64,000 nucleotides of DNA from the NCBI GenBank assembly GCA_902773055.1, contig CACYCZ010000078.1:9482-73481 (forward strand). Reading direction: 5' to 3'. Below are positions 13,599 through 29,427 of the stretch, one piece after another. The notes under the pieces are model-generated. The model saw only the letters and a list, made by a program, of their open reading frames with translations. It had not been told where the DNA came from and searched no databases. Both the position numbers and the translations under genes were made by a program. The DNA comes from an uncultured Bacteroidales bacterium (GTDB taxonomy: Bacteria; Bacteroidota; Bacteroidia; Bacteroidales; Bacteroidaceae). The number at the start of each line of letters is the position of its first letter. Within the stretch, counting starts at the first letter, position 1.

Positions 13599-16500
13599 AT
13601 GAAATCATTATTGGCCACAGCCATCATGCTGGTATCACTGCTGCCGGCAAAATCAACCACACCGATGTGGATGCGCTACGTTTCCATATCACCACAAGGC
13701 GATGCCATTGCCTTTACCTATAAAGGAAGTATCTACCGCACAAGCGTCCAGGGAGGCGAAGCCGTCAGGCTGACCTCAGGACAAAGCTATAACAGAGACC
13801 TGATATGGAGCCCTGACGGCAAGGAAATTGCCTTTGCCAGTGACAGAGGCGGAAGTTTTGATGTCTACGTCATGTCGTCAAACGGCGGCGAGGCACGGCG
13901 TCTGACCACCCTGACAGGCAACGAATTCCCGACGGCATGGACCCCCGACGGCAAAAACGTCCTGTTTCAAGCTGCCATACAAGACCCTGCCAAGAGTGTA
14001 TTGTTTCCAAGGGCCGTATACTCAGAACTATATGCCATTCCAGCCAAGGGAGGTATGATATCTCAGATCCTCGCCGTTCCGGCTGAGAAAGTATGCTATG
14101 ACCCCAAGGGAGAATTTCTTCTCTACCAAGACGTAAAAGGAATGGAGGACAAATTCAGGAAGCATCATACATCCTCAGTCACACGAGACATCTGGAAATA
14201 TGATATCAAGACCAAGAAACATACCAACCTGACCCAGCGCGGCGGTGAAGACAGGAATCCCGTCCTGTCGCCCGACGGCAAGGAAATATATTTCCTCAGC
14301 GAGCGCAACGGGAACAGTTTCAATGTCTATGCCATGGGGACAGAAGCCGGCAGTCAGGCAAAGGCTTTAACCCAGTTCAAGACCCACCCGGTAAGGTTCC
14401 TGACAATCAGCAAGGGGGGAATCCTGTGCTACACCTATGACGGTGAAATATACACACAGGCCGGCGCTTCCGCATCACCACGCAAAATCAGCATCACGGT
14501 AAACGACGACACAGAGCCCCGGCCTTCACTGGTATCGGTAAGCGGCGGGCTGAGCAGTTCTGCCATATCCCCCAATGGGAAGGAAGTAGCCTTTGTGCAC
14601 CGCGGTGAAGTGTTCGTCACCTCCATGGACTACACCACGACGAAACGCATTACCAACACCGTTGCTGCCGAGCGCACCGTGACATGGGCCGACGACAGGA
14701 CACTGGTCTATGCCAGCGAGCGCGATGGACTATGGCAACTCTACAAAGCCACTATTGCCCACAAAGACGACCAGAATTTTGCCAACGCTACCGTAATAAA
14801 GGAAGAACATATCCTGGCATCCAACACAATAGAACGGGCTTATCCCCAGTTCTCGCCCAACGGCAAAGAATTGGCATTTATAGAGAACAGGGACAAACTC
14901 ATGGTAATGGACATGGCTTCTAAGAAAGTACGCCAAGTTACTGACGGAAGCCAGTGGTTCAGCACCTCAGGAGGGTTTTCCTACAGCTGGAGCCCCAATG
15001 GAAAATGGTTTGCCCTGGAAATGATAACCAACGGGCATGATCCCTACAGCGACGTAGCCATAGTAAGTGCACAAGGAGGCAAAGTGACCAACCTGAGCCG
15101 CAGCGGATATTTCAGCGAATCACCCTGCTGGACAGCCGACGGCAATGCCGTTGTATTCCTGACCGACCGCTACGGAATGCGCAGCCATGCATCATGGGGT
15201 TCATTGAGTGATGTCATGATAGCATTTGTCAACCAAGACGCTTATGACAAATTCCAACTGAGCAAGGAAGACTATGAATTGCGTAAGGAACTGGAGAAAC
15301 AGCAGAAAAAAGACAAAGAAGAGGCTGACAAGAAAAAAGCAAAAGACAACAAGGACAAGAAAGAAAAAGACAAGAAAGACAGTATAAAGGCCGAGCCGGA
15401 AGTACAGATAGAGCCTGACGGCATAGAAGACCGCATTGTCAGGATTACACGAAACTCAGACATGGTGGTCAACTGCATCGGAGCAGCCGACAACAAAATA
15501 TACTATTTCGTCAACGAAAGCGGTGGATGCAACGTATACTGCTACAACCTTATTACTAAGGAGCGCAAATCCGTAGGCTCAATCCCTGACGGCAGTGTCA
15601 GCGTATCCAACAGCAAAGATTTCAAGACAATAGCCTGTGTCGGCTATCAGCATATCAGGAAACTTGAAACCGCCGGCGACAAGCTTTCCAATGTCAGCTA
15701 CAGCGGAAGCTATTACCTGGACCACGCAGCCGAGCGTGAGTACATGTTCAACCATGTATGTCTGCAAGAAAAGAAACGTTTCTACAATGTCAACATGCAC
15801 GGTGTAGACTGGGACAAGATGTGCTCTGCCTACCGCAAGTTCCTGCCTCATATAAGCAACAACCGGGATTTTGCCGACCTGCTGGGCGAACTGCTGGGCG
15901 AACTGAATGTATCACATACCGGCGGACGCTATTATCCGGACTCTCCCGCCTTGACGACAGCCAACCTGGGACTGCTGTACGATTGGAACTATACAGGAAA
16001 GGGAATGAAAGTTGACGAAATCGTATGCGGTGGCTCCTTTGACCATAAGAACACCCGGATGAAAGCCGGTTGCATAATTGAGAAAATCAATGACAAGACC
16101 TTTGAAACCAACAGTGAATTCTACAGCATAATGGAAGGACTGTCGGGCCACAAAACCAGCGTAGGTATATACAACCCGGCGACAGGCGAACACTGGACAG
16201 AAGTAACCCTGCCCATCTCCGACAGAAAATTAACTGACCTGCTCTACAAACGCTGGACAAAACACTGTGCTGAAGAGGTTGAGCGCTTGTCAAACGGACG
16301 TCTGGGATATGTACACATCAAATCAATGGACGACGCATCCTACCGCACCGTATACAGTGACATCCTCGGCAAATACAACACCAAGGAAGGCATCGTCATT
16401 GATACACGCAACAACGGAGGCGGCAGACTGCACGAAGACATCGAAGTGCTGTTCAGCGGTGAGAAATACCTGACCCAAGTCGTCCGCGGCAAAGAAGCCT

Positions 16501-16859
16501 GCGACATGCCCAGCCGACGCTGGAACAAGCCCAGTATCATGCTGCAATGCGAGGCAAACTACAGTAATGCCCATGGTACACCCTGGGTATATAAATACAA
16601 GAATATCGGCAAACTGGTTGGAATGCCTGTACCAGGCACCATGACATCTGTATCCTGGGAAACCCTGCAGGATCCATCTCTTATTTTCGGAATACCCATA
16701 ATCGGCTATAAGACGAAAGATGGCTCATATTTGGAGAACTCCCAATTGGAACCCGATTTCAAAGTAAGCAACGCACCTGAAGATATTGTCGAAGGACGAG
16801 ACGCTCAGCTGGAAACAGCAGTAAGAGAATTGCTTAAACAAATAGATAACAAACACTAA
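13599..16859 (+). CDS. Tricorn-protease-like S41 peptidase (TolB/PD40 beta-propellers + PDZ + S41 domain)
   Basis: It has a signal peptide and repeated SPDGKEIAF/SPNGKE PD40 motifs. The C-terminal region contains IDTRNNGGGRLHEDI, an S41-type motif. It is 1086 aa long and has a K/E/D-rich insert at about 15290-15400. Confidence 0.85.
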   Translation: MKSLLATAIMLVSLLPAKSTTPMWMRYVSISPQGDAIAFTYKGSIYRTSVQGGEAVRLTSGQSYNRDLIWSPDGKEIAFASDRGGSFDVYVMSSNGGEARRLTTLTGNEFPTAWTPDGKNVLFQAAIQDPAKSVLFPRAVYSELYAIPAKGGMISQILAVPAEKVCYDPKGEFLLYQDVKGMEDKFRKHHTSSVTRDIWKYDIKTKKHTNLTQRGGEDRNPVLSPDGKEIYFLSERNGNSFNVYAMGTEAGSQAKALTQFKTHPVRFLTISKGGILCYTYDGEIYTQAGASASPRKISITVNDDTEPRPSLVSVSGGLSSSAISPNGKEVAFVHRGEVFVTSMDYTTTKRITNTVAAERTVTWADDRTLVYASERDGLWQLYKATIAHKDDQNFANATVIKEEHILASNTIERAYPQFSPNGKELAFIENRDKLMVMDMASKKVRQVTDGSQWFSTSGGFSYSWSPNGKWFALEMITNGHDPYSDVAIVSAQGGKVTNLSRSGYFSESPCWTADGNAVVFLTDRYGMRSHASWGSLSDVMIAFVNQDAYDKFQLSKEDYELRKELEKQQKKDKEEADKKKAKDNKDKKEKDKKDSIKAEPEVQIEPDGIEDRIVRITRNSDMVVNCIGAADNKIYYFVNESGGCNVYCYNLITKERKSVGSIPDGSVSVSNSKDFKTIACVGYQHIRKLETAGDKLSNVSYSGSYYLDHAAEREYMFNHVCLQEKKRFYNVNMHGVDWDKMCSAYRKFLPHISNNRDFADLLGELLGELNVSHTGGRYYPDSPALTTANLGLLYDWNYTGKGMKVDEIVCGGSFDHKNTRMKAGCIIEKINDKTFETNSEFYSIMEGLSGHKTSVGIYNPATGEHWTEVTLPISDRKLTDLLYKRWTKHCAEEVERLSNGRLGYVHIKSMDDASYRTVYSDILGKYNTKEGIVIDTRNNGGGRLHEDIEVLFSGEKYLTQVVRGKEACDMPSRRWNKPSIMLQCEANYSNAHGTPWVYKYKNIGKLVGMPVPGTMTSVSWETLQDPSLIFGIPIIGYKTKDGSYLENSQLEPDFKVSNAPEDIVEGRDAQLETAVRELLKQIDNKH

Positions 16860-18330: not shown

Positions 18331-19392
18331 ATGGAGAATAAGACTCTTTCAGGAATGTCGCTAAGTGAACTGCAAAATGTTGCATACAAATTGGGCATGC
18401 CCCAATATGCAGCAAAACAAATTGCAGCATGGTTGTATACCAAGCAGATTTTCAGCATTTCTGAGATGACTAATATTTCAAAAACATTTCGGGACAAATT
18501 GGAAACAGAATATGAACTGGGGCGCAAACATCCCATAAAGAAAATGGTTTCTAAAGATGGAACCGTAAAATATCTGTTTCCAACCCAAAACGGGCATTTC
18601 ATAGAAACAGTATATATCCCGACTGCTGACAGGGCCACACTCTGTGTGTCCTCCCAGGTGGGGTGCAAAATGGGGTGTCAATTCTGCATGACAGGGCGTC
18701 AGGGATTCCAAGCACAACTCACGGCAGCCGACATCCTAAACCAGATATATGCACTACCAGAGTTTCAAAAAGTAACAAACATTGTCTTCATGGGACAAGG
18801 TGAACCTTTGGACAATATTGACAACGTATTAAGAGCATGCGAGATACTGACAGCCCCGTATGGGCTGGCATGGAGTCCGAAGCGCATTACAGTTTCTACT
18901 GTCGGTAATCTGAAGGGACTGAAACGCTTCCTGAACGAATGTCAGTGCAATCTGGCGGTCAGCCTGCATTTCCCAACCTCAGAACAACGACTGGAATTCA
19001 TGCCTGCCGAGAAGGCATGGCCCATTGCGAAAGTCATTGAACAACTGAAAGAATATGAGTTCTGCAACGGAGAACATCAATGGCATGAAGGAGCGAAGCA
19101 GAGACGTCTGTCTTTTGAATATATTATTTTCGCAGGATTAAATGATTCCCATCGCCACCGCAATGCCATTGTTGAATTATTGTCAGGGTTAGATTGCAGA
19201 GTCAACCTGATTCCGTTTCACAGCATCCCGGACTCCCCTTTCAAAGCTGCACCGGAACAACGCATGAAAGAGATACGTGACTATCTGACTTATAAAGGCG
19301 TATTCAGCACGCTGAGGGCTTCGAGGGGAGAAGATATCATGGCAGCCTGCGGATTGCTGACAACCAAAGAAAAACAAAATAAAACAAAATAA
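18331..19392 (+). CDS. rlmN: 23S rRNA/tRNA (adenine-C2)-methyltransferase, radical SAM
   Basis: It has the CX3CX2C cluster (SSQVGCKMGCQFCMTG) and GEPL, and its length and overall layout match RlmN. Confidence 0.9.
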   Translation: MENKTLSGMSLSELQNVAYKLGMPQYAAKQIAAWLYTKQIFSISEMTNISKTFRDKLETEYELGRKHPIKKMVSKDGTVKYLFPTQNGHFIETVYIPTADRATLCVSSQVGCKMGCQFCMTGRQGFQAQLTAADILNQIYALPEFQKVTNIVFMGQGEPLDNIDNVLRACEILTAPYGLAWSPKRITVSTVGNLKGLKRFLNECQCNLAVSLHFPTSEQRLEFMPAEKAWPIAKVIEQLKEYEFCNGEHQWHEGAKQRRLSFEYIIFAGLNDSHRHRNAIVELLSGLDCRVNLIPFHSIPDSPFKAAPEQRMKEIRDYLTYKGVFSTLRASRGEDIMAACGLLTTKEKQNKTK

Positions 19393-19402
19393 TTTATCAA
19401 TT

Positions 19403-20482
19403 ATGGAAAAAAAGAAAATTCGTGTCGGTATCACCCATGGTGACCTCTGCGGTGTAGGTTATGAGATTATTCTCAAGACATTTGCCTACCCAATGATGTG
19501 CGAAACCTGCATTCCCATCGTGTATGGTTCACCCAAGGCAGCAACATATCATCGCAAGATGTTGAATCTGACAACCAATTTCTCAATGGTAAACACTCCC
19601 GCCGAAGCGCAGGAAGGACGCTTGAACATGATATCCTGTTTTGACGAGGAAGTAAAGATAGACTTCGGCATTCCGAGTCCGGAAAGTGGACATGCAGCAT
19701 TGCTGTCGCTACAAAGAGCTATCAAGGATTACAGGAACGGAGACATTGACGTGTTGGTAACTGCTCCTATCAATAAGGCCAGCATCCAGAATAGTGATTT
19801 CCATTTTACCGGGCATACAGAGTATCTTGAACACGAATTGGGAGAAGGGAAGGAATCTCTGATGATACTGATGAGTTCACTGATGAAAGTTGCCCTGGTA
19901 ACAACACATCTTCCCATCAAGGATGTTGCTGCCAATATCACCCAAGAAAAAATAGAAAAGAAGATATCCATTTTCCATTCATCGCTGAAAAACGATTTTA
20001 CCATTTCCATTCCACGCATTGCTGTTTTGGGATTAAATCCCCACTGCGGTGATGATGGTCTCCTCGGCACAGAGGAAAAAGATATCATCAAGCCTGCCAT
20101 CAACGCCATGCGCGAAAAGGGAATACAATGCTTCGGCCCTTACCCTGCTGACGGGTTCTTTGGAGCAAGCATGTATACCCATTTTGACGGCGTTCTCGCC
20201 ATGTATCACGACCAAGGCCTGGCAGCATTCAAGGCTCTGTCTTCGGAAGATGGCGTCAACTTCACAGCCGGGCTGCCTATTGTGCGCACTTCTCCTGACC
20301 ATGGGGTTGCCTACGACATCGCCGGCAAGGGAGAAGCTAATGAGAATTCATTCAGACAGGCTATTTATGTAGCATTGGACGTATGGCGCAACCGACAGAT
20401 AGATAAGGAGGCCTACGCCAATCCTCTGAAAATAATTGTACAGGAAAAGGGGCATAAGGGCAACAGAGAGCAGATAGAATAA
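19403..20482 (+). CDS. pdxA: 4-hydroxythreonine-4-phosphate dehydrogenase
   Basis: Motifs are ITHGDLCGVGYEI, FTGHTEYL, GLNPHCGDDGLLG and SPDHGVAYDIAGKG. Confidence 0.9.
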   Translation: MEKKKIRVGITHGDLCGVGYEIILKTFAYPMMCETCIPIVYGSPKAATYHRKMLNLTTNFSMVNTPAEAQEGRLNMISCFDEEVKIDFGIPSPESGHAALLSLQRAIKDYRNGDIDVLVTAPINKASIQNSDFHFTGHTEYLEHELGEGKESLMILMSSLMKVALVTTHLPIKDVAANITQEKIEKKISIFHSSLKNDFTISIPRIAVLGLNPHCGDDGLLGTEEKDIIKPAINAMREKGIQCFGPYPADGFFGASMYTHFDGVLAMYHDQGLAAFKALSSEDGVNFTAGLPIVRTSPDHGVAYDIAGKGEANENSFRQAIYVALDVWRNRQIDKEAYANPLKIIVQEKGHKGNREQIE

Positions 20483-21195
20483 TGAAATTTGCCATTATCG
20501 CTGCTGGAGAAGGTTTGCGTCTCAGACAGGAAGGTGTCAAGGAAAGTAAACCCTTGGTGTGCATCAATGGTGAACCTTTAATAGACCGTCTGATACGCAT
20601 TTTCAGGAAACAGGATGCGAGTGAGATTGTAGTTATTATCAATGACCACATGCCTGATGTAGCTGAGCATCTGTACCATTTGCAACAGGTACACACAACT
20701 GAGAATCTGTGCCCGCTGACTGTTTTAAGGAAGAATACTCCAAGTTCCATGCACAGTTTCTACGAGACGAGCCGCTACCTGGAGACTGAGCCGTTTTGCC
20801 TGACCACTGTAGACACCGTTTTCCAAGAAGAGGATTTCAGGAAATATATCGCTGCTTTCCTATCTTATACAGGCGACGCCCTCATGGCTGTCACCGACTT
20901 CATTGACGATGAGAAACCGCTCTACGTCGCTACGGCCTCAGACATGACAATCACGGGATTCTACGATGCCCCCAATGGCTGCAACTATATATCCGGAGGC
21001 ATCTATTGCCTGAAACCGAGTGCCATGCCTGCCCTGTATTCCTGCATTTCAGAGGGGCAAAGCCACATGCGCAACTTCCAACGCCGACTGATTGCCGACG
21101 GACTTAAGGTTCATGCCTATTGCTTCCCTAAGATTCTTGATATTGATCATCTTGATGATATTATTAAAGCACAGGATTTTCTTCAAGTTAAATAA
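20482..21195 (+). CDS. NTP-transferase (sugar/alcohol-phosphate nucleotidylyltransferase) family protein
   Basis: It has the N-terminal G-x-G-x-R-L loop (FAIIAAGEGLRLRQEG). Its start overlaps the pdxA stop (TAATG). Confidence 0.7.
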   Translation: MKFAIIAAGEGLRLRQEGVKESKPLVCINGEPLIDRLIRIFRKQDASEIVVIINDHMPDVAEHLYHLQQVHTTENLCPLTVLRKNTPSSMHSFYETSRYLETEPFCLTTVDTVFQEEDFRKYIAAFLSYTGDALMAVTDFIDDEKPLYVATASDMTITGFYDAPNGCNYISGGIYCLKPSAMPALYSCISEGQSHMRNFQRRLIADGLKVHAYCFPKILDIDHLDDIIKAQDFLQVK

Positions 21196-21213
21196 CCCTC
21201 TGGCACAACATTG

Positions 21214-22059
21214 ATGACCATAGCTGGTATCCTCCGTCTCGCAGCATTTTCCCCTCAATCCAATGATTTGCGCATCATGCAACTGACAGCCGAAAGGCTG
21301 GAAGCTGCCGGTAACAAGGTAACCCTTTATCCTGAGGACACATTATGGGAGAAAGACATTGACGAACGGATTATTTTTTCCATGGCAAGGCATGATTCGA
21401 CACTGCTGAAACTGCATCACTATGAAAGCCATGGAGCCATTGTCATTAATCCCGTTGCCGGCATACGCCACTGCAGGCGTGCTGAAATAACACGCCTGAT
21501 GGCCAAGAACCATATTCCCGTCCCTCAAAGCATCGTGTTGGATATTTCCGCCGGCAGCATACTACCTTCCCTTCCCCCCTTCCCCTGCTGGCTGAAACGG
21601 GCTGACTCCTGGACACAGGAAAAGAACGACGTCTGCTTTATTCCTGACAGTGATGAATTGCATCGGTGCCTGTCTGATTTTCAACAAAGAAACATTCGTA
21701 CGGCCATTGTCTGCCGGCATATTGAAGGTGACATCGTCAAATTCTACGGTGTTGCCGACACCCATTTTTTTCATTGGTATCATCCCACACTGAACAACGG
21801 ACTTTCCTTATCCGGTTTAGAGGCCATTAACGGACGAGCACACCTATACGATTTCTCCGTCACAGACTTAGCAGCCGACATGAACCGCCTGGCCCATCTG
21901 GCTCAGGTCCCTGTCTACGGCGGTGACTGCATCGTCAGTCCCGACGGCAATTACCATATCATTGATTTCAACGACTGGCCCAGTTTCTCAACCTGCGCAG
22001 AGGAGGCCGCCGATGCCATAGCCCGTTATATCTTAAAACATACGGAACCTGATGGTTAA
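21214..22059 (+). CDS. Hypothetical protein, possible ATP-grasp fold (inositol-phosphate-kinase-like C-terminus)
   Basis: It is a compact ORF between two lipid-synthesis genes. The C-terminal YHIIDFNDWPSF resembles the (I/V)D(I/V)N.FP(G/S) strand of ATP-grasp ITPK-type kinases. This is a weak similarity recalled from memory. Confidence 0.4.
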   Translation: MTIAGILRLAAFSPQSNDLRIMQLTAERLEAAGNKVTLYPEDTLWEKDIDERIIFSMARHDSTLLKLHHYESHGAIVINPVAGIRHCRRAEITRLMAKNHIPVPQSIVLDISAGSILPSLPPFPCWLKRADSWTQEKNDVCFIPDSDELHRCLSDFQQRNIRTAIVCRHIEGDIVKFYGVADTHFFHWYHPTLNNGLSLSGLEAINGRAHLYDFSVTDLAADMNRLAHLAQVPVYGGDCIVSPDGNYHIIDFNDWPSFSTCAEEAADAIARYILKHTEPDG

Positions 22060-22085
22060 GAACGATATATAGATCACTCACATCC

Positions 22086-23012
22086 ATGCCAAATATTCAA
22101 TCAACATACAAGAGTCCTGATACTGAAGAGTGGCTCGACGTCCACTTCACCCGCCCTATAGGATATATGTGGACTTTGTTTTTCAAGGCGCTGGATATCC
22201 ACCCCAACGTAGTAACCATTCTGTCTGTCATTCTTGGAATTGTCGCAGGAGTCATGTTCATGCACTCCGATTTGTACCATAATATCCTTGGTATCATCTT
22301 TCTCATGTGGGCCAATTTTTACGACAGCTGCGACGGGCAACTGGCGCGCCTTACGGGCAAGAAGACACAATGGGGGCGCATTCTTGACGGCTTTGCCGGC
22401 GACGTTTGGTTCTTTGTCATCTATGGCGCCATCGTTGTCCGGCTGTTTCATCGCCCCATGCCCGCTACTGCCACAGAGTGGCAATGGACAGGATTTGTGC
22501 TCTGTCTCATCTCCGGCACTCTGTTTCACGCACGCCAGTGCCAGCTGGCCGACTATTACCGCAACATCCACCTCTATTTCCTGCCGGGAGCGACAAGCGA
22601 GTTGCATTCTTCCGTCGCCCTGCGGAAACAACTTGACGCAACGCCCTGCAAGGGGAATTTCTGGTGGCGCATCTTCCTGAGAGCTTATGCAGGTTACACC
22701 CGTGCCCAGGAACGACTCACTCCCCACTTCCAACAGCTGATGAACCTCATCCATACCACGCGGAACGGAGAGGTAACCGAAACATTCAGGCGCGACTTCA
22801 GGCGCCAAAGTCTCCCCCTGATGAAATATGCCAACATCATTACTTTCAACTGCCGCGCCCTCACCCTCTACATAACCTGCCTTATTGACGAGCCTTGGCT
22901 CTACCCCGTTGCGGAGATGACCCTCTTTGCAGCCATAGCAGCCTACCTAAAGCACCGGCACGAACGCATGTGCGCCCATTTTACGGAAGAACTCAACAAG
23001 GGAAACTACTGA
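22086..23012 (+). CDS. CDP-alcohol phosphatidyltransferase family membrane protein
   Basis: YDSCDGQLARLTGKKTQWGRILDGFAGD matches D-x2-D-G-x2-A-R-x8-G-x3-D, with the last Asp one residue later than canonical. It is a multi-TM protein. Confidence 0.8.
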   Translation: MPNIQSTYKSPDTEEWLDVHFTRPIGYMWTLFFKALDIHPNVVTILSVILGIVAGVMFMHSDLYHNILGIIFLMWANFYDSCDGQLARLTGKKTQWGRILDGFAGDVWFFVIYGAIVVRLFHRPMPATATEWQWTGFVLCLISGTLFHARQCQLADYYRNIHLYFLPGATSELHSSVALRKQLDATPCKGNFWWRIFLRAYAGYTRAQERLTPHFQQLMNLIHTTRNGEVTETFRRDFRRQSLPLMKYANIITFNCRALTLYITCLIDEPWLYPVAEMTLFAAIAAYLKHRHERMCAHFTEELNKGNY

Positions 23013-23015
23013 ATC

Positions 23016-24701
23016 ATGAAAACCTTATACCGCAACCTGTTCCTGCTTTTCGGCCTTGCCGCCATCATCATCATGCTCCTCACCTTCGACATGGACTATC
23101 GAGAACTGTGGCTCAACGTGCGCCGTGCCGGTTATTGGTTTTTTGCCGTCGTAGGAATATGGGGGGTCATCTACTTCTTCAATGCACTCTCCTGGTTCTG
23201 CATTATCCGGGGCGATGACCGCCCCTCCCCCGTCCCCTTCCGGAGGGTCTTCAAACTGACCGTCTCCGGTTTCGCGCTCAACTATGCCACCCCCTTCGGT
23301 CTGATGGGCGGTGAGCCCTACCGCATCATGGAGCTTTCTCCCGTCCTCGGCACTCCCCGCGCCACGTCGTGCGTCATTCTCTATGTCATGATGCACATCT
23401 TCTCTCACCTGTGCTTCTGGCTTCTCTCCATTATCCTTTACCTGTTGATGTATACGCCGTCGCTTTTCATGGCATTATTCCTGGCGCTGACAGGGTCGTT
23501 GCTCCTGGCGGCTGCCGGTCTCTTCATTGCAGGCTACCGCTACGGCATGGTCGTCAAGACGTTCGATCTGCTCGGCCGGCTGCCCCTTGTCGGCTCATGG
23601 GCGCGCCGTTTCCTCGACAAACGCAGCGACGCCCTCACCCAGATCGACCTCCAGATAGCCGGGCTCCACCGCCAGCGCCGTTCCACCTTCTACGCATCCT
23701 TCATCAGCGAGTTTACGGCACGTTTTCTTACCAGTGCCGAGATATTCTTCATCCTCAAGATACTCACCCCCCATGTCAATCCGCTCGACTGCATACTCAT
23801 CATGGCCTTCACCTCGCTGTTTGCCAACATCTTCTTCTTCTCCCCCATGCAGCTCGGTGCGCGCGAGGGAGGCTTTGCCATCGCCGTGAGCGGCCTGTGC
23901 CTCTCGGGAGCCTTCGGCATCTATGCCGGCCTCATCACGCGCGTCAGGGAAATCATCTGGATCATCATCGGCGTGGCTCTCATGAAGGTGGGCAACCACA
24001 ATCCTCCCGCCCGGCGGCAGACAGCCGTCAGGGGACTGCTCTTCGACTACGGCGGCACGCTCGACACTGGCGGACGCCACTGGGCTGACGTCATCTGGGA
24101 AGCTTACCGCCGCTACCATGTCCCCGTCACCTCCGCATCGTTCCATGAAGCCTACATCCATGCTGAGCGCACCCTCGGAGACCACGACATCGTCCGTCCC
24201 GACGACACCTTCCTGGAACTCATGAGGAAAAAGATACACCTCCAGATACAGTACCTCCGGCTCGACAATGCCTACGAGGAACCCGTGGCCCGCTATTGCT
24301 ACCAATACGCCCGGCAGGCCACCGCCACGGCGCTCCCCGTCCTCCGCGAGCTGCACCGCCGTTACCCTATGGCCCTCGTCAGCAATTTCTACGGCAACCT
24401 CCCCGCCGTCCTCCGCGACTTCGACCTGCTTCCCCTCTTCGATGCCGTCATCGACAGCACCTCGGCAGGCCTGCGCAAACCCTCCGCCGGACTCTGGCAG
24501 CTCGGCCTCGATGCCCTGCACCTCACACCCTCCGAAGCCTGCGTCATAGGCGACTCCGAGGAAAACGACATACAGCCCGCCCTCCGCCTGGGATGCCGTG
24601 CCATCCAACTCAAGGCCGGGCCACCGTCCCGTGAAGGCGCTGCCGGCCATACCGTCAGCCGGCTCGGCGACCTCCCCGCTGCCATCGACGCCATGGACTG
24701 A
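23016..24701 (+). CDS. Fusion: LPG-synthase-TM / flippase-like membrane domain + HAD-IA hydrolase domain
   Basis: The N-terminal ~330 aa are polytopic (UPF0104-like). The C-terminal domain has HAD motifs LLFDYGGTLD (I, DxYG-type), LVSNFYGN (II), GLRKPS (III) and VIGDSEENDI (IV). Only 3 nt separate it from the upstream gene. Confidence 0.65.
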   Translation: MKTLYRNLFLLFGLAAIIIMLLTFDMDYRELWLNVRRAGYWFFAVVGIWGVIYFFNALSWFCIIRGDDRPSPVPFRRVFKLTVSGFALNYATPFGLMGGEPYRIMELSPVLGTPRATSCVILYVMMHIFSHLCFWLLSIILYLLMYTPSLFMALFLALTGSLLLAAAGLFIAGYRYGMVVKTFDLLGRLPLVGSWARRFLDKRSDALTQIDLQIAGLHRQRRSTFYASFISEFTARFLTSAEIFFILKILTPHVNPLDCILIMAFTSLFANIFFFSPMQLGAREGGFAIAVSGLCLSGAFGIYAGLITRVREIIWIIIGVALMKVGNHNPPARRQTAVRGLLFDYGGTLDTGGRHWADVIWEAYRRYHVPVTSASFHEAYIHAERTLGDHDIVRPDDTFLELMRKKIHLQIQYLRLDNAYEEPVARYCYQYARQATATALPVLRELHRRYPMALVSNFYGNLPAVLRDFDLLPLFDAVIDSTSAGLRKPSAGLWQLGLDALHLTPSEACVIGDSEENDIQPALRLGCRAIQLKAGPPSREGAAGHTVSRLGDLPAAIDAMD

Positions 24702-24737
24702 GAGTCTCCCACAAGGCGCTACAAACGACACCGATAC

Positions 24738-24841
24738 CCGATACTTTCTATATTCACCGACCGCAAACATACATTCAGCAACGCGAAACATAAGTTCCCC
24801 TACGGTAAACATACGTTCACCATCGGGAAACATAGGCCCCA
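24738..24841. repeat. Dispersed 5 x 21-bp element, copy B (opposite orientation to copy A)
   Basis: The units are cccgatactttctatattcac / cgaccgcaaacatacattcag / caacgcgaaacataagttccc / ctacggtaaacatacgttcac / catcgggaaacataggcccc. Confidence 0.8.
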
Positions 24842-24990
24842 ACGTCTTGGACCCGTCCCCCTGTCGCCCTGCGGCAGACCGTTTCTCACGGAACTGTCAG
24901 CTACAGGCAGAACACGAAAAAAAAATTCATATCTGCTCTTTTTTTCAAAGGTTTTTCAAGAAAAACTGGAGGGGCTTGTCTTTTGTTTTG

Positions 24991-24998
24991 TAATTTTG
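24991..24998 (+). promoter_or_regulatory. -7 box TAATTTTG upstream of the C69 dipeptidase gene
   Basis: It is an exact TAnnTTTG match about 64 nt upstream of the ATG at 25062. Confidence 0.4.
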
Positions 24999-25061
24999 CA
25001 TTGATCTGCACAACGGTCCCCGACACGGGGCGACAGGTCTGGTCAACTCAAAAAAAATCGA

Positions 25062-26720
25062 ATGAAACGGATATTACTTTTGTTATCAGACGGTATCAGG
25101 CACGCCAACGGCATGGCGTACTGGTGTCTGCTGGCGGCATGGTGCTGCCAGGTAGCAACGGGAACGGCCCGGGAGACAGAGGCCGTGGACAGGCTGGCAT
25201 GTACGAGCATCATGGTGGGCAGGAATGCCAGCGCAGACGGTTCGGTCATGACGAGCCACACGTGTGACTCTTGGTACAGGACGTGGATGCAGTGGGTACC
25301 AGCTGCCGACTACGCCAAGGACACCACAATGGCCATATACGACGGACTTATGCATACGGAGAATCCCCAAAGCATGCAGAATGTCAAAGTCAGGGGCACT
25401 ATCCCGCAGGCGGCCCATACATACCGTTTCCTGAACACGTCGTACCCTTGCCTGAACGAGAAGCAGCTGGGCATAGGCGAGACGACCATCGGCGGAAGGG
25501 AGATACTACGCAACAAGGAGGGCATGTTCATGATTGAAGAACTGGAACGGGTAGCCCTGCAACGCTGCACAACGGCGCGCGAAGCCATCACACTGATGGG
25601 GGCCCTCATCAAGAAATACGGTTACGGCGATGACGGGGAATGTCTGACCATAGCCGACACGAGGGAGGTATGGATATTTGAGGTGTTCGGCGAAGGCCCT
25701 GGGAAGAAAGGGGGCGTATGGGCTGCCGTGCGCATTCCCGACGACGAGATTGCCGTATCGGCCAACGTGACGCGCATAGGCAGGCTAGACCTGCTGGACA
25801 AGGACAGCTACATGGCCTCGGACAATGTGAAGGAGGTGGCACGAAGACTGAAGCTGTGGGACGGCAAGGAACCGTTCTGCTTCTGGAAAGCCTACAGCGG
25901 TAAGAACTACATCGGCGAGAAAAAGAACTACAGCGTCAGGGAATGGTTCATCATGGACCAGCTGGCGCCGTCGAGACATTTCAGCGAGGATGCCGAGGAA
26001 CTGCCACTGAGCGTCAAACCTGACAGGAAGGTGTCGGTGACCGACATCGCCCACCTGTTCAACTCATACTATGAGGGCACGGACAAGGACTACACGCAAC
26101 GGCTTTATGTGCCGAACAAGAAAAAGGAGAAGGTGGGCGACAGTATACCCGACAGAATCGTATCGCCCCGTGCCAACCCGTGGATGAAGACCGACGAGCA
26201 GGCGATATATTATGCCCTGGGGGACAGCACCTTCAAGAACTGGATGCGCTATATCGCCGTGCCACAATGTGCCTACAGCACTATCATACAGCTTCGGGGA
26301 GGCATGCCCGACGAGATTGGCGGGGTGGCATGGATAGCCTTGGACAATCCGGGAGAGAGCCCGCGGTTTCCCGTGTTCTGCGGCACGACGCAGCTGCCCA
26401 AGATGCTGGAGATATGCGGCAACCATACATACAGGGATGATGCCGCCATGTGGCATTTCCGCCAGACCAACAAGCTGGCTACCGTGAGATGGGGCACCTG
26501 CCGCAAGACACTGGAACCCGCACGAGAGTATTTCCTGAAAAAAGGACTGCGCGAACTGCCCTACGTGGAGAGTACCTACAGGACCATTCTGGCAGAAGAA
26601 GGCCCTGAGGCCGCAACAGAATACCTGAACGGGTATACAGCAGACTTTATCGGCGCAGAAATCATGAAATGGGATGAACTGTACCGCACGTATTGGAGAC
26701 AATTCTGGTCGGGATTCTGA
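25062..26720 (+). CDS. Peptidase family C69 dipeptidase
   Basis: LACTSIMVGRNASADGSVMTSHTCD has the N-terminal nucleophile Cys context of C69/Ntn dipeptidases. The 552-aa length fits. Confidence 0.85.
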   Translation: MKRILLLLSDGIRHANGMAYWCLLAAWCCQVATGTARETEAVDRLACTSIMVGRNASADGSVMTSHTCDSWYRTWMQWVPAADYAKDTTMAIYDGLMHTENPQSMQNVKVRGTIPQAAHTYRFLNTSYPCLNEKQLGIGETTIGGREILRNKEGMFMIEELERVALQRCTTAREAITLMGALIKKYGYGDDGECLTIADTREVWIFEVFGEGPGKKGGVWAAVRIPDDEIAVSANVTRIGRLDLLDKDSYMASDNVKEVARRLKLWDGKEPFCFWKAYSGKNYIGEKKNYSVREWFIMDQLAPSRHFSEDAEELPLSVKPDRKVSVTDIAHLFNSYYEGTDKDYTQRLYVPNKKKEKVGDSIPDRIVSPRANPWMKTDEQAIYYALGDSTFKNWMRYIAVPQCAYSTIIQLRGGMPDEIGGVAWIALDNPGESPRFPVFCGTTQLPKMLEICGNHTYRDDAAMWHFRQTNKLATVRWGTCRKTLEPAREYFLKKGLRELPYVESTYRTILAEEGPEAATEYLNGYTADFIGAEIMKWDELYRTYWRQFWSGF

Positions 26721-26759: not shown

Positions 26760-28085
26760 ATGGAGACGAATTATTGGAAAAAGCACCCCTACATCAACGT
26801 AGGCATACTGGAGGCGGGCGAGATAGCCTTCGTCCTCAACGGCACATTCTGCCACGACGGCCAGACCGTTGCCGGAGAGCAGACGGTAAAGTGCCGGAAC
26901 GGCCGGATAGACTGGCAGGGGCAGAGCTACGAGGAACTGACCTTTGCCCCCATGGAGAATGAGGACAGTTTCACGCTCAAGGATGTCGTCATAGGCATTG
27001 ACTTCCACTGGGAGCGCAGGGAACAGCAACGCTTTGCCGGCAGCCTGATGATTATCGTTGACAAAGACCGTCTTGTCGCCATCAACAGGGTACACATAGA
27101 AGACTATCTGCTCAGCGTCATCAGCAGCGAGATGAATGCCTCGTCGAGCCTTGAATTTCTCAAGGCCGCCGCTGTCATCAGCAGAAGCTGGCTGCTGAAA
27201 CAAATAGAAAACCGGCATCGCCACCACGACGGCAACATCGGCAACGACCGTAAGGATACTCCGCAAGAACTGGTCAGCTGGAACGACAGGGAAGACCACC
27301 TGTTGTTTGACGTCTGCGCCGACGATCACTGCCAACGCTATCAAGGCATACAAAAGGCATCGAGTCCCACCGTGGGACAAGCCATAAGGGAAACCACGGG
27401 AATGGTATTGACAAGTGACGGAGAAATATGCGATGCCCGTTTCTACAAATGTTGCGGAGGCGTTACAGAAGAATACAAAACCTGCTGGGAGAACCTGCGC
27501 TATACCTATCTCTCCCCCGTGAGGGACAATGCCCCGGCAACCGACATACCCGACCTGAAGACAGAAAGCGAAGCACGAAAATGGATTTGTTCATCCCCCG
27601 AGGCTTTCTGCAACACACAGGACAAAGCCATACTCCGCCAGGTACTGAATGACTACGACATGGAAACGTCGGATTTCTACCGTTGGAAACAAGTATACAG
27701 CCAAGCCGAGATAAAGGCACTCATCGAAGCAGGAACAGACAGAGACCTGGGCGACATTCTCGACCTCGTCCCCTTGGAACGCGGCAGGAGCGGCAGGATA
27801 TACCGCCTGCGCATCGTGGGCTCCCGAAACACCTACACCATCGGGAAGGAACTGGTCATCCGCAGGGTGCTGTCCACATCCCACCTGTACAGTTCCGCCT
27901 TTGTCGTCGACAAGGAGGACATACAGGACGGCATCCCCGGAAAATTCATCCTTCACGGTGCCGGCTGGGGCCACGGGGCAGGCCTGTGCCAAATAGGCGC
28001 CGCCGTCATGGGAGCCAGAGGATACTCGTATCAGCAGATATTGCTCCACTATTACAACGGTGCAGAGATAGAAAAAGCATATTAA
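26760..28085 (+). CDS. SpoIID/LytB-domain protein (peptidoglycan lytic transglycosylase / amidase enhancer family)
   Basis: Signatures DDHCQRYQG and GHGAGLCQIGA are present. Confidence 0.8.
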   Translation: METNYWKKHPYINVGILEAGEIAFVLNGTFCHDGQTVAGEQTVKCRNGRIDWQGQSYEELTFAPMENEDSFTLKDVVIGIDFHWERREQQRFAGSLMIIVDKDRLVAINRVHIEDYLLSVISSEMNASSSLEFLKAAAVISRSWLLKQIENRHRHHDGNIGNDRKDTPQELVSWNDREDHLLFDVCADDHCQRYQGIQKASSPTVGQAIRETTGMVLTSDGEICDARFYKCCGGVTEEYKTCWENLRYTYLSPVRDNAPATDIPDLKTESEARKWICSSPEAFCNTQDKAILRQVLNDYDMETSDFYRWKQVYSQAEIKALIEAGTDRDLGDILDLVPLERGRSGRIYRLRIVGSRNTYTIGKELVIRRVLSTSHLYSSAFVVDKEDIQDGIPGKFILHGAGWGHGAGLCQIGAAVMGARGYSYQQILLHYYNGAEIEKAY

Positions 28086-28113
28086 TCATTAGAAAGAAAT
28101 TAAGGATAAAAAC

Positions 28114-29403
28114 ATGAAACACATCAAAGAACTTAGTCCATGGTCATGGGTCCCCACCCTTTATTTTGCCGAAGGACTGCCCAACGTGCTGGTAACGGCA
28201 GTGGCTGTCGTTGTATACCTGCAAATGGAAATGAGTGACACCGAGATAGGTCTCTACACGGCATGGTTAGGACTTCCCTGGGTCATCAAGCCCCTGTGGA
28301 GTCCCTTCGTGGACTTGTACAAGACCAAGCGCTGGTGGGTACTGACCATGCAAGTATTATTAGGGTCATCACTGGCGGGTGTGGCATTTACGCTGAATAC
28401 TTCTTTCTGGTTTCAAGGCACAATGTTCTTCTTCTTCCTCATGGCCTTTACCAGTGCCACCCACGACATTGCCGCCGACGGCTTCTACATGCTTGCCCTT
28501 GATGACCACCAGCAGGCATGGTTCGTAGGCATACGCAACACATTCTACCGCCTGGCAGTCATCTTTGGCAACGGTGTCCTCGTACCCATAGCCGGCTGGA
28601 TTGCCACATCGTCAGGATACAGCGCAGCCTTTTCATGGAGTCTGGTATTCTACGGGCTTGCAGCCCTGTTTATCGCCTTGTGGCTGCTACACGGAACAGT
28701 CATGCCCCGTACAGCAATAGACAAGATGAGACCGACATCTGCCAAGGCCGTAGCACAAGGCATCAAGGATATGTTCACCTCGTTTTTCACAAAATTTCCT
28801 TTGGCCCCGACGGTATTCGCCATGCTCTTCATTCTTTTCTACCGTCTGCCTGAAGCCATGCTCAATGCCATGACCAAGACATTCCTGCTGAGACCCGGCG
28901 AAGAAGGCGGGCTCGGATTATCGACAATAGAATATGGCATAGCAAGCGGCACGGTAGGCATGATCGGGCTGACCCTGGGCGGCATACTTGGCGGCATCCT
29001 CGCCTCGCGCGACGGACTGAAGAAATGGCTTTGGCCAATGGTGTGCGCCATCTCGTTGCCCGATATCGTCTATGTCTGGCTCAGCTACGAAATGACATCC
29101 AATATCTATATTGTCAGCACCTGCCTCTTTATTGAGCAGTTTGGCTACGGAATGGGGTTCACAGCCCTCACGCTGTATATGCTTTACTATTGCAAGGGCG
29201 AATTCAAGACATCCCACTATGCCATTTGCACCGGCATCTCTTATCTGGGCCTCATGCTGCCTGGCATGATTGCCGGATATCTGAAAGACAAAGTGGGATA
29301 CAACACATTCTTCAGCATTGTCATGGTAATGTGTCTCGTAACCTTTGCCGTAGCCGCCTTTATCAAGATTGACCCGGAATTTGGGAAAAAGGCAAGAGAA
29401 TAA
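28114..29403 (+). CDS. AmpG-family MFS permease (muropeptide transporter-like), paralog 1
   Basis: It is 12-TM-like, with the N-terminus WVPTLYFAEGLP, LGLPWVIKPLWSPFVD, and the C-terminal IEQFGYGMGF..LPGMIAGYL. Confidence 0.7.
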   Translation: MKHIKELSPWSWVPTLYFAEGLPNVLVTAVAVVVYLQMEMSDTEIGLYTAWLGLPWVIKPLWSPFVDLYKTKRWWVLTMQVLLGSSLAGVAFTLNTSFWFQGTMFFFFLMAFTSATHDIAADGFYMLALDDHQQAWFVGIRNTFYRLAVIFGNGVLVPIAGWIATSSGYSAAFSWSLVFYGLAALFIALWLLHGTVMPRTAIDKMRPTSAKAVAQGIKDMFTSFFTKFPLAPTVFAMLFILFYRLPEAMLNAMTKTFLLRPGEEGGLGLSTIEYGIASGTVGMIGLTLGGILGGILASRDGLKKWLWPMVCAISLPDIVYVWLSYEMTSNIYIVSTCLFIEQFGYGMGFTALTLYMLYYCKGEFKTSHYAICTGISYLGLMLPGMIAGYLKDKVGYNTFFSIVMVMCLVTFAVAAFIKIDPEFGKKARE

Positions 29404-29427
29404 CCCCCAGCCCTGGCACTATAGCTG

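Follow-up and report, generated by a model that had tools for sequence, protein, structure and literature searches.

A compact four-gene cluster behind rlmN and pdxA in Bacteroidales, related to the putative alternative inositol-lipid cluster of Phocaeicola and Prevotella

Described and proposed routes to inositol lipids and comparable head groups

Clusters of the kind analysed here are already known from a 2022 proposal for attaching inositol phosphate to membrane lipids in Phocaeicola vulgatus and Prevotella (Heaver et al, 2022; PMC9246714). Species carrying only this cluster produce PI-dihydroceramide (PI-DHC), and the published description names three of its genes, leaving the ATP-grasp gene unmentioned (PMC9246714). 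A gene of the BT_1521 type, encoding an LPG_synthase_TM protein, neighbours both this cluster and the one of Bacteroides thetaiotaomicron (PMC9246714). The latter, BT_1522-BT_1526, encodes MIPS, a PIP synthase, a PgpA-type PIP phosphatase and a PAP2-type PI-DHC synthase, and PI-DHC is the expected end product of both. The di-myo-inositol-phosphate (DIP) pathway of archaea and Thermotoga (IPCT, DIPPS and DIPP phosphatase) shares with the present cluster a cytidylyltransferase, a CDP-alcohol phosphotransferase and a phosphatase acting after MIPS. Kennedy-type activation combines a kinase, a cytidylyltransferase and a CDP-alcohol phosphotransferase (for example LicA/LicC, CK/CCT/CPT and, with ceramide as the acceptor, insect CPE synthase), and fusions of kinase and nucleotidyltransferase are typical of such activation pairs. 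In Caulobacter, the soluble IPCT-like enzyme CpgD (CTP:phosphoglycerate cytidylyltransferase) activates the head-group precursor of a bacterial anionic sphingolipid; the head group is a different one, and partners of the CDP-OH_P_transf, ATP-grasp and HAD families are not described there (PMC12275187).

Layout and conservation of the locus

Four plus-strand genes, g1 to g4, were found directly 3′ of rlmN and pdxA in the ORF list of the window, that is, the whole 64-kb stretch of DNA analysed (Table 1). The tight packing described in the first-pass annotation was reproduced when the spacers were re-measured (18, 26 and 3 nt), as was the overlap of the g1 start with the pdxA stop (1 nt shared, TAATG). 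An in-frame TTG at 21211 precedes the ATG of g2. The domains assigned earlier to g1, g3 and g4 were upheld by Pfam profile search. MIPS, already noted as missing next to the cluster, was not found anywhere in the 64-kb window. The 3′ part of the cluster is compositionally deviant (GC3 0.79 versus 0.51), and the flank of the cluster is rearranged. The upstream rlmN is a housekeeping gene and a conserved neighbour outside the pathway.

Table 1. Positions in the window of the cluster genes, their domains and the two upstream genes.
Feature	Positions	Strand	Size and profile or fold evidence
rlmN	18331-19392	+	TIGR00048, 338 bits (cutoff 290); Pfam RlmN_N and Radical_SAM
pdxA (4-hydroxythreonine-4-phosphate dehydrogenase)	19403-20482	+	TIGR00557, 373 bits (cutoff 290)
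g1, NTP-transferase	20482-21195	+	237 aa; Pfam NTP_transf_3 / NTP_transferase
g2, ATP-grasp fold	21214-22059	+	281 aa from ATG; Foldseek fold match
g3, CDP-alcohol phosphotransferase	22086-23012	+	308 aa; Pfam CDP-OH_P_transf
g4, LPG_synthase_TM-HAD fusion	23016-24701	+	561 aa; two Pfam domains
g4 N-terminal domain, LPG_synthase_TM	23016-24005	+	Pfam
g4 C-terminal domain, HAD-IA	24006-24701	+	Pfam Hydrolase

Among 80 related genome loci, which were seeded with g2, g3 was present in 77 and g1 and the HAD in 72 each. The compact order g1-g2-g3-HAD recurred in 58, and the grouping is therefore more than chance. pdxA lay directly upstream of g1 in 61 loci and rlmN upstream in 32. A locus seeded instead with a g3 homologue had the identical order, including a 279-aa gene without Pfam match. 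The synteny across Bacteroidales that the first-pass annotation had proposed to analyse was observed, upstream pdxA included. Co-occurrence with MIPS was checked as well: it was encoded within 10 kb in 48 of the 80 loci, directly after the HAD gene in a near relative (L002), and was not nearby in 11 of the 59 fully covered loci.

The locus of P. vulgatus ATCC 8482 (L031) reads rlmN-DUF4837-pdxA-NTP-g2like-CDPOH-LPG_TM-HAD-MFS-x-MIPS, and five consecutive genes of it fit the locus tags BVU_RS13095, 13105 and 13115 (PMC9246714). The window shares with it the genes, their order after rlmN/pdxA and the position of LPG_synthase_TM, with 38-61% identity between the proteins (58% for g1), and the link made earlier to the Prevotella-type route that Heaver et al (2022) put forward is correct. 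The window cluster is very probably an ortholog of this published putative alternative inositol-lipid cluster. It differs from that of P. vulgatus in that LPG_TM and HAD form a single polypeptide, and in that MIPS, a FucP-like MFS transporter, a PfkB kinase and a DUF5686/CarboxypepD_reg gene were not found linked to it.

None of the four window proteins reached the models for PIP synthase or PI-DHC synthase. Relative to the B. thetaiotaomicron pathway, the cluster would rely on a non-homologous enzyme, or on none, for the PI-DHC synthase and PIP phosphatase steps, and it has two further enzymes, a soluble nucleotidyltransferase and one with an ATP-grasp fold. Both gene sets coexist in a single operon in some MAGs, where the cluster encloses genes for PIP synthase of the BT_1523 type and for PI-DHC synthase. 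No candidate ORF for a PgpA-type phosphatase was found in these hybrid operons, in which the HAD is the only phosphatase. Coexistence of the PIP-synthase route with g1-g3 suggests that the characterised set and the g1-g3 set may have different products.

The four proteins

g1 matched Pfam NTP_transf_3/NTP_transferase (E ∼1e-13), and no TM segment was found in it. The profile of its family matched RmlA (1e-10), HddC (4e-9) and, over the full length, 4JD0 (3e-8), the inositol-1-phosphate cytidylyltransferase (IPCT) of T. maritima (PMC12275187), with the GxGxR, PK and TxD residues aligned. Inositol-phosphate cytidylyltransferases scored no better against g1 than RmlA or HddC did. From its sequence, g1 is predicted to be a soluble sugar/alcohol-phosphate nucleotidyltransferase, and we infer it to be a CTP:inositol-phosphate cytidylyltransferase.

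No Pfam family matched g2 (none of 41 family members). Its AlphaFold2 model (pLDDT 91) has an ATP-grasp fold according to Foldseek (TM ∼0.7 to ArgX/LysX, RimK and Ddl), which bears out its designation as ATP-grasp-like. The C-terminal motif quoted for a likeness to ITPK is present and conserved across the family, but the likeness itself is weak: the structural neighbours are mostly ligases, the nearest being carboxylate-amine ligases, and the first ITPK ranks 32nd. At the sequence level, PDB relatives are inositol-phosphate kinases only, and weakly so, the best profile match being Entamoeba ITPK1 (E = 0.004, marginal). This match spans stretches with the invariant D238 and D251-x-N253, and we take D238, D251 and N253, by general ATP-grasp knowledge, to be Mg2+ ligands. 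No TM segment was found in g2.

g2 was joined to the C-terminus of an NTP_transferase in 8 independent clusters among the 150 best representative ones and at 3 of the 80 genome loci; because the two genes are adjacent anyway, these fusions are weaker evidence of consecutive steps than joined genes from separate places would give. g2 would be a kinase supplying the substrate of g1, and it is fairly likely to act immediately before it, although, going by its nearest structures, it may be a ligase instead. In Phocaeicola loci, MIPS has beside it the genes for an MFS transporter of the FucP type and for a sugar kinase of the PfkB family; given these separate salvage genes, g2 is probably more than a kinase for salvage of free inositol.

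g3 (CDP-OH_P_transf, E 1.5e-12) is, by its sequence, assigned as a divergent CDP-alcohol phosphotransferase with the motif D80xxDGxxAR(x8)GxxxD101(x4)D106. The one-residue-longer spacer before the last Asp, pointed out earlier as unusual, is indeed there and is no local quirk, as the four residues were kept in all 73 homologues with a readable motif. The best PDB relatives were the archaeal, CDP-inositol-related AF2299 (4e-7) and IPCT/DIPPS 4MND (1.6e-4), both above the PIP synthases, which use CDP-DAG, and the fold was likewise nearer to AF2299 and DIPPS (identity 13-15%, TM ∼0.48). Compared with these two, g3 has the longer D3-D4 spacer and a large extra C-terminal half (∼135-308), which is strongly conserved and lies outside the Pfam model. 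Among NCBIfam models, those for archaetidylinositol-phosphate synthase and PIP synthase matched best, though neither reached its cutoff.

For g4, Pfam matched both parts of the proposed fusion: an MprF-flippase-like LPG_synthase_TM domain (residues 13-315, E 3e-21; ∼8 hydrophobic segments) and a HAD-IA hydrolase (residues 339-536, E 3e-14). A linker of ∼12 residues separates the last TM helix from the HAD, and the separate genes that relatives have for TM and HAD line up with the fusion seamlessly at the junction. The fusion is common only to the window and two related loci (L004 and L038). LPG_synthase_TM also occurs joined to the CDP-OH transferase (P0211), but is an accessory part, as it lies in the cluster at only 23 of the 80 loci. 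The HAD is joined to the CDP-OH transferase at one locus (L029), a fusion that also occurs in P. veroralis (PMC9246714).

The missing second Asp of HAD motif I is a family-wide trait (FDYGGT in 67 of 67 homologues). In the family alignment (residues numbered from the start of the domain, 330 lower than in g4), the nucleophile D14 and likewise K158, D183 and D188 do not vary, S126 is conserved in at least 90%, and Gly takes the Asp+2 position throughout. Apart from this position, the scaffold for catalysis is intact. HADs that lack Asp+2 often prove to be poor or unusual phosphatases. The earlier comparison with the dehalogenase-type subfamily was not supported; the HAD comes closest to IA enzymes of the REG-2/HDHD3-like kind (TIGR02252, E 3e-15, a sub-cutoff match).

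Head group, proposed route and alternatives

As MIPS lies near the cluster in so many loci, L002 included, inositol is the most likely head group; judging from orthologs only, it is probably that of the window cluster too, although the window lacks MIPS. In P. vulgatus, Cer-PI is present and diacyl-PI was undetected (PMC10056535), which favours direct transfer to ceramide. In the route we propose, inositol phosphate would come from MIPS encoded elsewhere in the genome, or from salvage. g2, as a kinase, would phosphorylate it (most economically Ins-3-P to an inositol bisphosphate), g1 would cytidylylate the product to a CDP-inositol(-phosphate) donor, and g3 would move phospho-inositol(-phosphate) from CMP onto a ceramide or DAG hydroxyl. 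The HAD would strip the extra phosphate at the membrane surface, as a functional analogue of the PgpA-type phosphatase BT_1525, whose role it would mirror, and flipping of the finished lipid may fall to the LPG_synthase_TM domain. What we observed are the genes present, their orthology and conservation, the fusions and the folds; all substrates and the step order are our reading of these.

This route has the same logic as Kennedy-type activation, from kinase via cytidylyltransferase to phospho-alcohol transfer onto a lipid hydroxyl, but its kinase candidate has an ATP-grasp rather than a choline-kinase/APH fold, and the conserved phosphatase after the transferase is unneeded in the Kennedy route. 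Unlike in the DIP pathway, a lipid and not Ins-P is the expected acceptor, a HAD takes the place of an IMPase as phosphatase, and the ATP-grasp enzyme is added. While the logic of activation, transfer, dephosphorylation and flipping is plausible for the cluster, the five steps taken as a whole, including a phosphorylated lipid intermediate, are tentative and rather doubtful; we know of no precedent for a CDP-inositol-phosphate donor, and no biochemical test of the cluster logic was found in the literature searched.

The published scheme (Heaver et al, 2022; PMC9246714) runs from MIPS (Ins-P) via the NTP transferase (CDP-inositol) and the CDP-alcohol transferase with DAG (PI-DAG) to an AUR1-like HAD placing phosphoinositol onto dihydroceramide, with the ATP-grasp and LPG_TM proteins as bystanders. 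The gene content agrees with it, and the CDP-OH-HAD fusions would fit consecutive steps. We nevertheless consider it unlikely: diacyl-PI is not detected in P. vulgatus, the universally conserved and g1-fused g2 is left unexplained, and a genuine PAP2-type PI-DHC synthase adjoins the HAD in the hybrid loci. Moreover, known inositol-phosphoceramide synthases are PAP2-type, HADs act through an aspartyl-phosphate on phosphomonoesters, and we know of no HAD that transfers phosphodiester head groups. Quite unlikely, too, is that g3 follows PIP-synthase logic and joins a CDP-lipid with Ins-3-P to a lipid-inositol-3-phosphate, to be dephosphorylated by the HAD. This would account for its sub-cutoff NCBIfam matches and for the conserved partner phosphatase, sometimes joined to g3; all five genes would be used and the canonical D-1 linkage would result. 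Yet if the donor were CDP-ceramide, made by g2 as ceramide kinase and g1 as ceramide-1-phosphate cytidylyltransferase, two soluble proteins from families with soluble substrates would act on lipids, and no RmlA-like transferase or ATP-grasp enzyme working on a lipid phosphate is known to us. With CDP-DAG (CdsA) as the donor, both would be unexplained and the missing diacyl-PI hard to explain. The closeness of g3 to AF2299/DIPPS in sequence and fold speaks against either version.

The unlinked MIPS, the generic sugar-1-phosphate nucleotidyltransferase sequence of g1, and the deviant composition and rearranged flank would also fit activation of another alcohol phosphate in this lineage (glycerol-P, a sugar-P or another cyclitol) and thus a head group other than myo-inositol. 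This is very unlikely, as all four proteins are clear orthologs, with identical hallmark motifs, of those in MIPS-linked clusters, and MIPS is known to be unlinked in a minority of cases, P. copri among them (PMC9246714). That the product is no membrane lipid at all is highly unlikely. For a soluble di-inositol-phosphate-like solute, it counts that MIPS, a cytidylyltransferase, a DIPPS-like transferase and a phosphatase make up exactly the DIP pathway complement. To our knowledge, however, DIP itself is restricted to (hyper)thermophiles, a flippase-like membrane domain is associated and fused with the cluster, and BT-type lipid genes are nested in it in hybrid loci. For phosphoinositol on a capsule or LOS glycan, it counts that the B. 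thetaiotaomicron capsule has MIPS-dependent inositol independent of the lipid genes; however, cluster-only species make PI-DHC without other candidate genes (PMC9246714).

On balance, the four genes are very probably the ortholog, in an uncultured, gut-type Bacteroidales lineage, of the B. vulgatus/Prevotella-type cluster, and we lean towards phosphoinositol head groups on membrane lipids, chiefly dihydroceramide, as what it builds. Relative to the literature searched, two observations are new: the ATP-grasp gene belongs to the core of the cluster and is repeatedly joined to the cytidylyltransferase, and in some MAGs the characterised BT-type genes for PIP synthase and PI-ceramide synthase are nested within it.

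[quoted passage not shown]

The cluster comprises an NTP-transferase (g1), an ATP-grasp-fold protein (g2), a CDP-alcohol phosphotransferase (g3), and a fusion of an LPG_synthase_TM domain with a HAD hydrolase (g4). The tight packing described in the first-pass annotation was confirmed: the gaps between the four genes are 18, 26, and 3 nt, and the TAA of pdxA shares one base with the ATG of g1. The ATG start of g2 is consistent with the N-termini of its family members. Upstream, rlmN and pdxA are genuine, both scoring above their NCBIfam equivalog cutoffs. Participation of pdxA in the pathway, considered in view of its frequent adjacency (see the table), was set aside; since its product scores above the cutoff of the PdxA equivalog model, the simplest view is that of a neighbouring housekeeping gene. 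Searching Pfam supported the domains predicted earlier for g1 (NTP_transferase/NTP_transf_3), g3 (PF01066; 48.6 bits, cutoff 22), and g4, but returned no family for g2. Hydrophobic segments are absent from g1 and g2; g3 is a membrane protein, as is g4 in its N-terminal half. Scans for promoters and terminators gave nothing above shuffled expectation, the promoter model used not covering Bacteroidetes.

Coordinates of the cluster and of neighbouring or related features, with occurrence among the 80 related loci (all retrieved through g2)
Feature	Stretch	Position	Orientation	Content	Loci
g1	window	20482-21195	co-directional	237 aa ORF	72/80
g2	window	21214-22059	co-directional	281 aa from ATG
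g3	window	22086-23012	co-directional	308 aa ORF	77/80
g4	window	23016-24701	co-directional	561 aa ORF
HAD					72/80
LPG_TM					23/80
pdxA immediately upstream					61/80
MIPS within 10 kb					48/80
Compact g1-g2-g3-HAD order					58/80
GC3 gradient	window	20482-26720
Antisense ORF opposite g4	window	23595-24842	minus	415 aa
Tricorn-like protease	window	13599-16859		1086 aa
SpoIID-domain gene and two AmpG-like MFS genes	window	26760-30657
FucP-type symporter and PfkB-family kinase	L031	13533-15682		kinase on minus strand
Hybrid locus	L033	11160-14466
HAD and downstream genes	L081-L084	8775-12640

GC3 climbs steeply along the cluster, from 0.51 (g1) through 0.65 (g3) to about 0.79 (g4), and the GC content of the HAD domain is 65.5%, while that of the window overall is 49.8%; the 3′ part might have been recombined or transferred. 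The ORF antisense to g4, located where GC content is highest, is probably a spurious one caused by composition. Upstream of the cluster, after the large tricorn-like protease (PD40 repeats, Tricorn_C1, Peptidase_S41), come a putative esterase and a protein of 181 aa without family match.

A genome scan with the g2 family, one genome per species, yielded at least 598 loci, 80 of which were kept. One of them (L031) stems from Phocaeicola vulgatus ATCC 8482 and reads rlmN, DUF4837, pdxA, NTP_transferase, g2-like gene, CDP-OH_P_transf, LPG_synthase_TM, HAD, MFS, a minus-strand kinase, and MIPS (myo-inositol-phosphate synthase), its domains being confirmed by Pfam. The window proteins match this locus by tblastn in the same order (58%, 55%, and 38% identity). 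The putative alternative inositol lipid cluster of Heaver et al. 2022 (PMC9246714) was defined from the same organism, the genes named being BVU_RS13095 (NTP), BVU_RS13105 (phosphatidyltransferase), and BVU_RS13115 (HAD); a lysyl-PG-synthase-like gene is close by. The published tags match five consecutive L031 genes in the same organism; therefore, the window cluster is, judged by gene order and sequence similarity, an ortholog of the published one, and the link to that route drawn in the first-pass annotation was right.

Clusters of this type were found in Bacteroidaceae, Prevotellaceae, Muribaculaceae, Dysgonomonadaceae, and Tannerellaceae. The same arrangement was seen in a locus reached by way of a g3 homologue instead of g2, where a 279-aa gene that matches nothing in Pfam again separates the genes for the NTP and CDP-OH transferases. 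The window lineage is divergent: its closest non-identical g2 is 58% identical. Among genome loci, the closest reach no more than about 49-70% identity; g2 has a single exact public match (P0001), recorded on a 4.6-kb contig. Two contigs carrying a cluster of Bacteroidales type (L021 and L045) are labelled [Ruminococcus] lactaris and Lachnospiraceae and were probably mis-binned in those assemblies.

Conserved deviations in the cluster enzymes

The g1 protein aligns over its full length with an inositol-1-phosphate cytidylyltransferase (IPCT, 4JD0; E = 3e-8), including the catalytic Arg, Lys, and Asp; RmlA (1e-10) and HddC (4e-9) are stronger matches, and the score against NF041135 is 30.8 bits (cutoff 580). 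Its neighbour g2 has no name in Pfam, NCBIfam, or PDB sequence searches, matches to RimK/LysX and ITPK being marginal, and the g2 family (n = 41) has no Pfam match even at E ≤ 10, Ins134_P3_kin (PF05770) included. Its AlphaFold2 model (pLDDT 91) was assigned to the ATP-grasp fold by Foldseek (E about 1e-13; TM about 0.7 to ArgX, RimK, and Ddl), which has three domains and acidic/Asn Mg2+ ligands. D238, D251, and N253, the putative ligands in g2, are invariant and lie in stretches aligning with the C-terminal region of ITPK1. The ITPK likeness proposed earlier for g2 is weak: inositol-phosphate kinases lead its weak PDB sequence relatives, with a marginal profile match to ITPK1 (1Z2N; E = 0.004) ahead of the ATP-grasp ligase PsnB (0.012), ArgX (0.041), ITPK4 (0.12), and human ITPK1 (about 0.7). 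By fold, however, StITPK1 ranked only 32nd, and g2 is no closer to ITPKs than to LysX, RimK, and Ddl ligases, so that the fold search does not separate kinase from ligase.

g2 is a core member of the cluster, yet it is mentioned neither in PMC9246714 nor in the other literature searched; no functional work on the alternative cluster or on BVU_RS13100 was found there either. It forms the C-terminal part of a fusion with the NTP transferase in 8 of the top 150 representative clusters (<50% mutual identity; for example, P0243) and in 3/80 genome loci. One 691-aa representative (P0346) combines a PAS-HisKA-HATPase_c sensor kinase with a full g2-type ATP-grasp domain, a combination that may be real or an artefact of gene calling.

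The longer spacer before the last Asp of g3, and the absence of the second Asp from HAD motif I, had both been pointed out as unusual; they are real and turned out to be hallmarks of their families. In g3, the PF01066 signature (D1xxD2GxxAR...GxxxD3xxxD4) is present except that four residues separate D3 and D4 (LDGFAGD). This motif (D..DG..AR-x8-G...D-x4-D) occurs in 73/73 homologues in which it could be read; the spacing in the family signature is x3, and in the gapless alignment with AF2299 the last Asp of that protein falls on Gly105 of g3. Against the PIP/archaetidylinositol-phosphate synthase models NF045883, NF040950, and NF052561, g3 scored 47, 34.5, and 22 bits, reaching none of the cutoffs (180, 170, 350). 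Fold searches gave moderate matches only (TM ≤ 0.48), which do not tell a lipid from a soluble acceptor.

In g4, a flippase-like LPG_synthase_TM domain (residues 13-315; 76 bits, cutoff 33.4) precedes the HAD hydrolase (residues 339-536; Pfam Hydrolase, 54 bits, cutoff 26.4). An MprF/lysyl-PG synthase was rejected, the C-terminal aminoacyl-PG synthase domain being absent and the HAD hydrolase taking its place. HAD motif I reads FDYGGT[IL]D in 67/67 homologues with Gly invariant at +2, instead of the DxDx(T/V) of HAD-IA, in which Asp+2 is the general acid/base. All else in the catalytic set is kept (nucleophile Asp, motif II Ser, motif III Lys, motif IV acidics): among 31 sequences, no variation was seen at D14, K158, D183, and D188 (domain numbering), and conservation of S126 was ≥90%. 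The best PDB sequence relative, 3CNH, also has D-I-G-G. The comparison with dehalogenase-type HADs did not stand, the closest curated subfamily being REG-2/HDHD3-like IA.

Besides the window, the LPG_TM-HAD fusion occurs in L004 and L038, a CDP-OH-HAD fusion in L029 and in P. veroralis (PMC9246714), and a CDP-OH-LPG_TM fusion in P0211. Only about 12 residues separate the last TM helix of g4 from the HAD core, so that the HAD active site must lie at the membrane surface. That the LPG_TM-HAD fusion stems from a sequencing frameshift was considered and rejected, this being the simplest reading of two domains in one frame with a seamless junction and of the same fusion in two unrelated MAGs, although one assembly is no proof.

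MIPS linkage and hybrid loci

The lack of an adjacent MIPS gene was borne out for the entire 64-kb window by tblastn with P. vulgatus MIPS (E ≤ 1e-3). MIPS is missing from 32 related loci, 21 of them truncated contigs and 11 with full flanks; unlinked MIPS is, therefore, a known minority state, and P. copri has been described as an exception in which MIPS is not near the cluster (PMC9246714). In a near relative (L002), MIPS follows directly after the HAD gene. Downstream of the cluster, the window has a SpoIID-domain gene and a tandem pair of AmpG-like MFS genes, whose homologues in L002 and the Phocaeicola loci are instead found upstream of rlmN. This shift points to a local rearrangement of the flank, which may have unlinked MIPS. 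Given MIPS in relatives, the minority state, and the rearranged flank, inositol is the most likely head group in the window organism.

Four Phocaeicola loci (L031, L008, L017, L056) contain a FucP-type MFS sugar symporter and a PfkB-family sugar kinase between the HAD gene and MIPS, which could together serve as a module for taking up and salvaging inositol; the window has neither. In a lineage retrieved via a g3 homologue (L081-L084), HAD is followed by CarboxypepD_reg/Plug, a GDPD glycerophosphodiester phosphodiesterase, and a His_Phos_1 phosphatase, with no MIPS nearby.

Seven MAG loci (L014, L027, L033, L052, L060, L077, L078) are hybrids with the pathway known from B. thetaiotaomicron (BT_1522-BT_1526; BT-type). 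Nested between g2 and g3 are four genes, for a GtrA-like protein, a BT_1523-type PIP synthase (287 bits with the PIP-synthase model), a PAP2-type PI-dihydroceramide synthase (473 bits, just below the cutoff of 480), and a GlsA/OlsF-like acyltransferase, the latter lacking in L078; HAD and MIPS come after. Thus, two gene sets published as "either/or" can share one operon. No ORF in the hybrid operon is fit to be a PgpA-type phosphatase, and the loci fit the HAD acting as a PIP-type phosphatase. The nesting could also mean that the head group differs from plain PI-dihydroceramide in stereochemistry or substitution.

A possible route to inositol phosphoceramide

P. vulgatus and P. veroralis make PI-dihydroceramide despite lacking BT-type genes, a correlation with the cluster only (PMC9246714), and P. 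vulgatus ATCC 8482 contains Cer-PI without detectable diacyl-PI (PMC10056535). Because of these lipid data, a route using g2, g1, g3, and HAD is favoured. The soluble pair, as kinase and then cytidylyltransferase, would provide a CDP-activated inositol donor, from which g3 would transfer directly to ceramide (perhaps DAG); HAD would take off the remaining phosphate, and the LPG_TM domain may translocate the lipid. What the data show is gene content, orthology, folds, motifs, and fusions; every substrate here is one that we infer. The most economical use of the conserved genes would run from MIPS (Ins-3-P) via g2 (inositol bisphosphate), g1 (CDP-inositol-phosphate), and g3 (lipid-phospho-inositol-phosphate) to the final lipid made by HAD. 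Judged by pathway stereochemistry, the bisphosphate should give the canonical D-1 linkage, whereas a direct CDP-(Ins-3-P) route should not. We tentatively suggest that g2 might be the first of a new bacterial inositol(-phosphate) kinase family, forming with g1 the CDP-inositol-phosphate donor, and that inositol phosphoceramide might arise via a phosphorylated lipid intermediate trimmed by a membrane-tethered HAD phosphatase without Asp+2. The fusions join genes that adjoin anyway, and there is real uncertainty in that g2 has ligase-like structural neighbours and that the HAD lacks Asp+2.

The published scheme, in which HAD is a PI-DAG:ceramide transferase, appears unlikely: diacyl-PI is not detectable in P. 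vulgatus, g2 is ignored, and the scheme clashes with known HAD chemistry. To our knowledge, the HAD family is not known for the reaction so assigned. A PIP-synthase-like scheme with CDP-DAG or CDP-ceramide as donor seems slightly less probable still, as soluble RmlA-like and ATP-grasp enzymes must then act on lipids or stay unexplained. A non-inositol head group in the window lineage is improbable too, considering the MIPS linkage in related loci. The gene complement does match the archaeal pathway to a soluble DIP-like product, but such a product, or a glycan decoration, does not match the lipid phenotype or the membrane fusions and is the least probable of these alternatives.

The window thus holds a somewhat rearranged further copy of the published cluster, with an LPG_TM-HAD fusion and unlinked MIPS; the new points are that the ATP-grasp gene belongs to the core, that g1 and g2 occur fused, that hybrid loci exist, and that the motif deviations are conserved. 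NCBIfam release 20 has curated models for BT-type enzymes, but g1-g4 reach none of its models, and reviews from 2023 and 2025 still call the alternative cluster predicted. In Prevotella, Phocaeicola and, on present evidence, Muribaculaceae and many uncultured Bacteroidales, the route is still an in-silico proposal, and one that leaves out g2, a gene present throughout and in some cases fused to the cytidylyltransferase. The revision offered here is a kinase, then a cytidylyltransferase, then transfer to ceramide, then a phosphatase, for which the hybrid loci and fusion proteins would be good experimental material. In gut Bacteroidales, inositol sphingolipids influence the expression of capsules, antimicrobial-peptide resistance, and fitness in mice (PMC9246714); if true, the revised scheme would be a third inositol-lipid route, distinct from the eukaryotic PI-synthase and the PIP-synthase routes.
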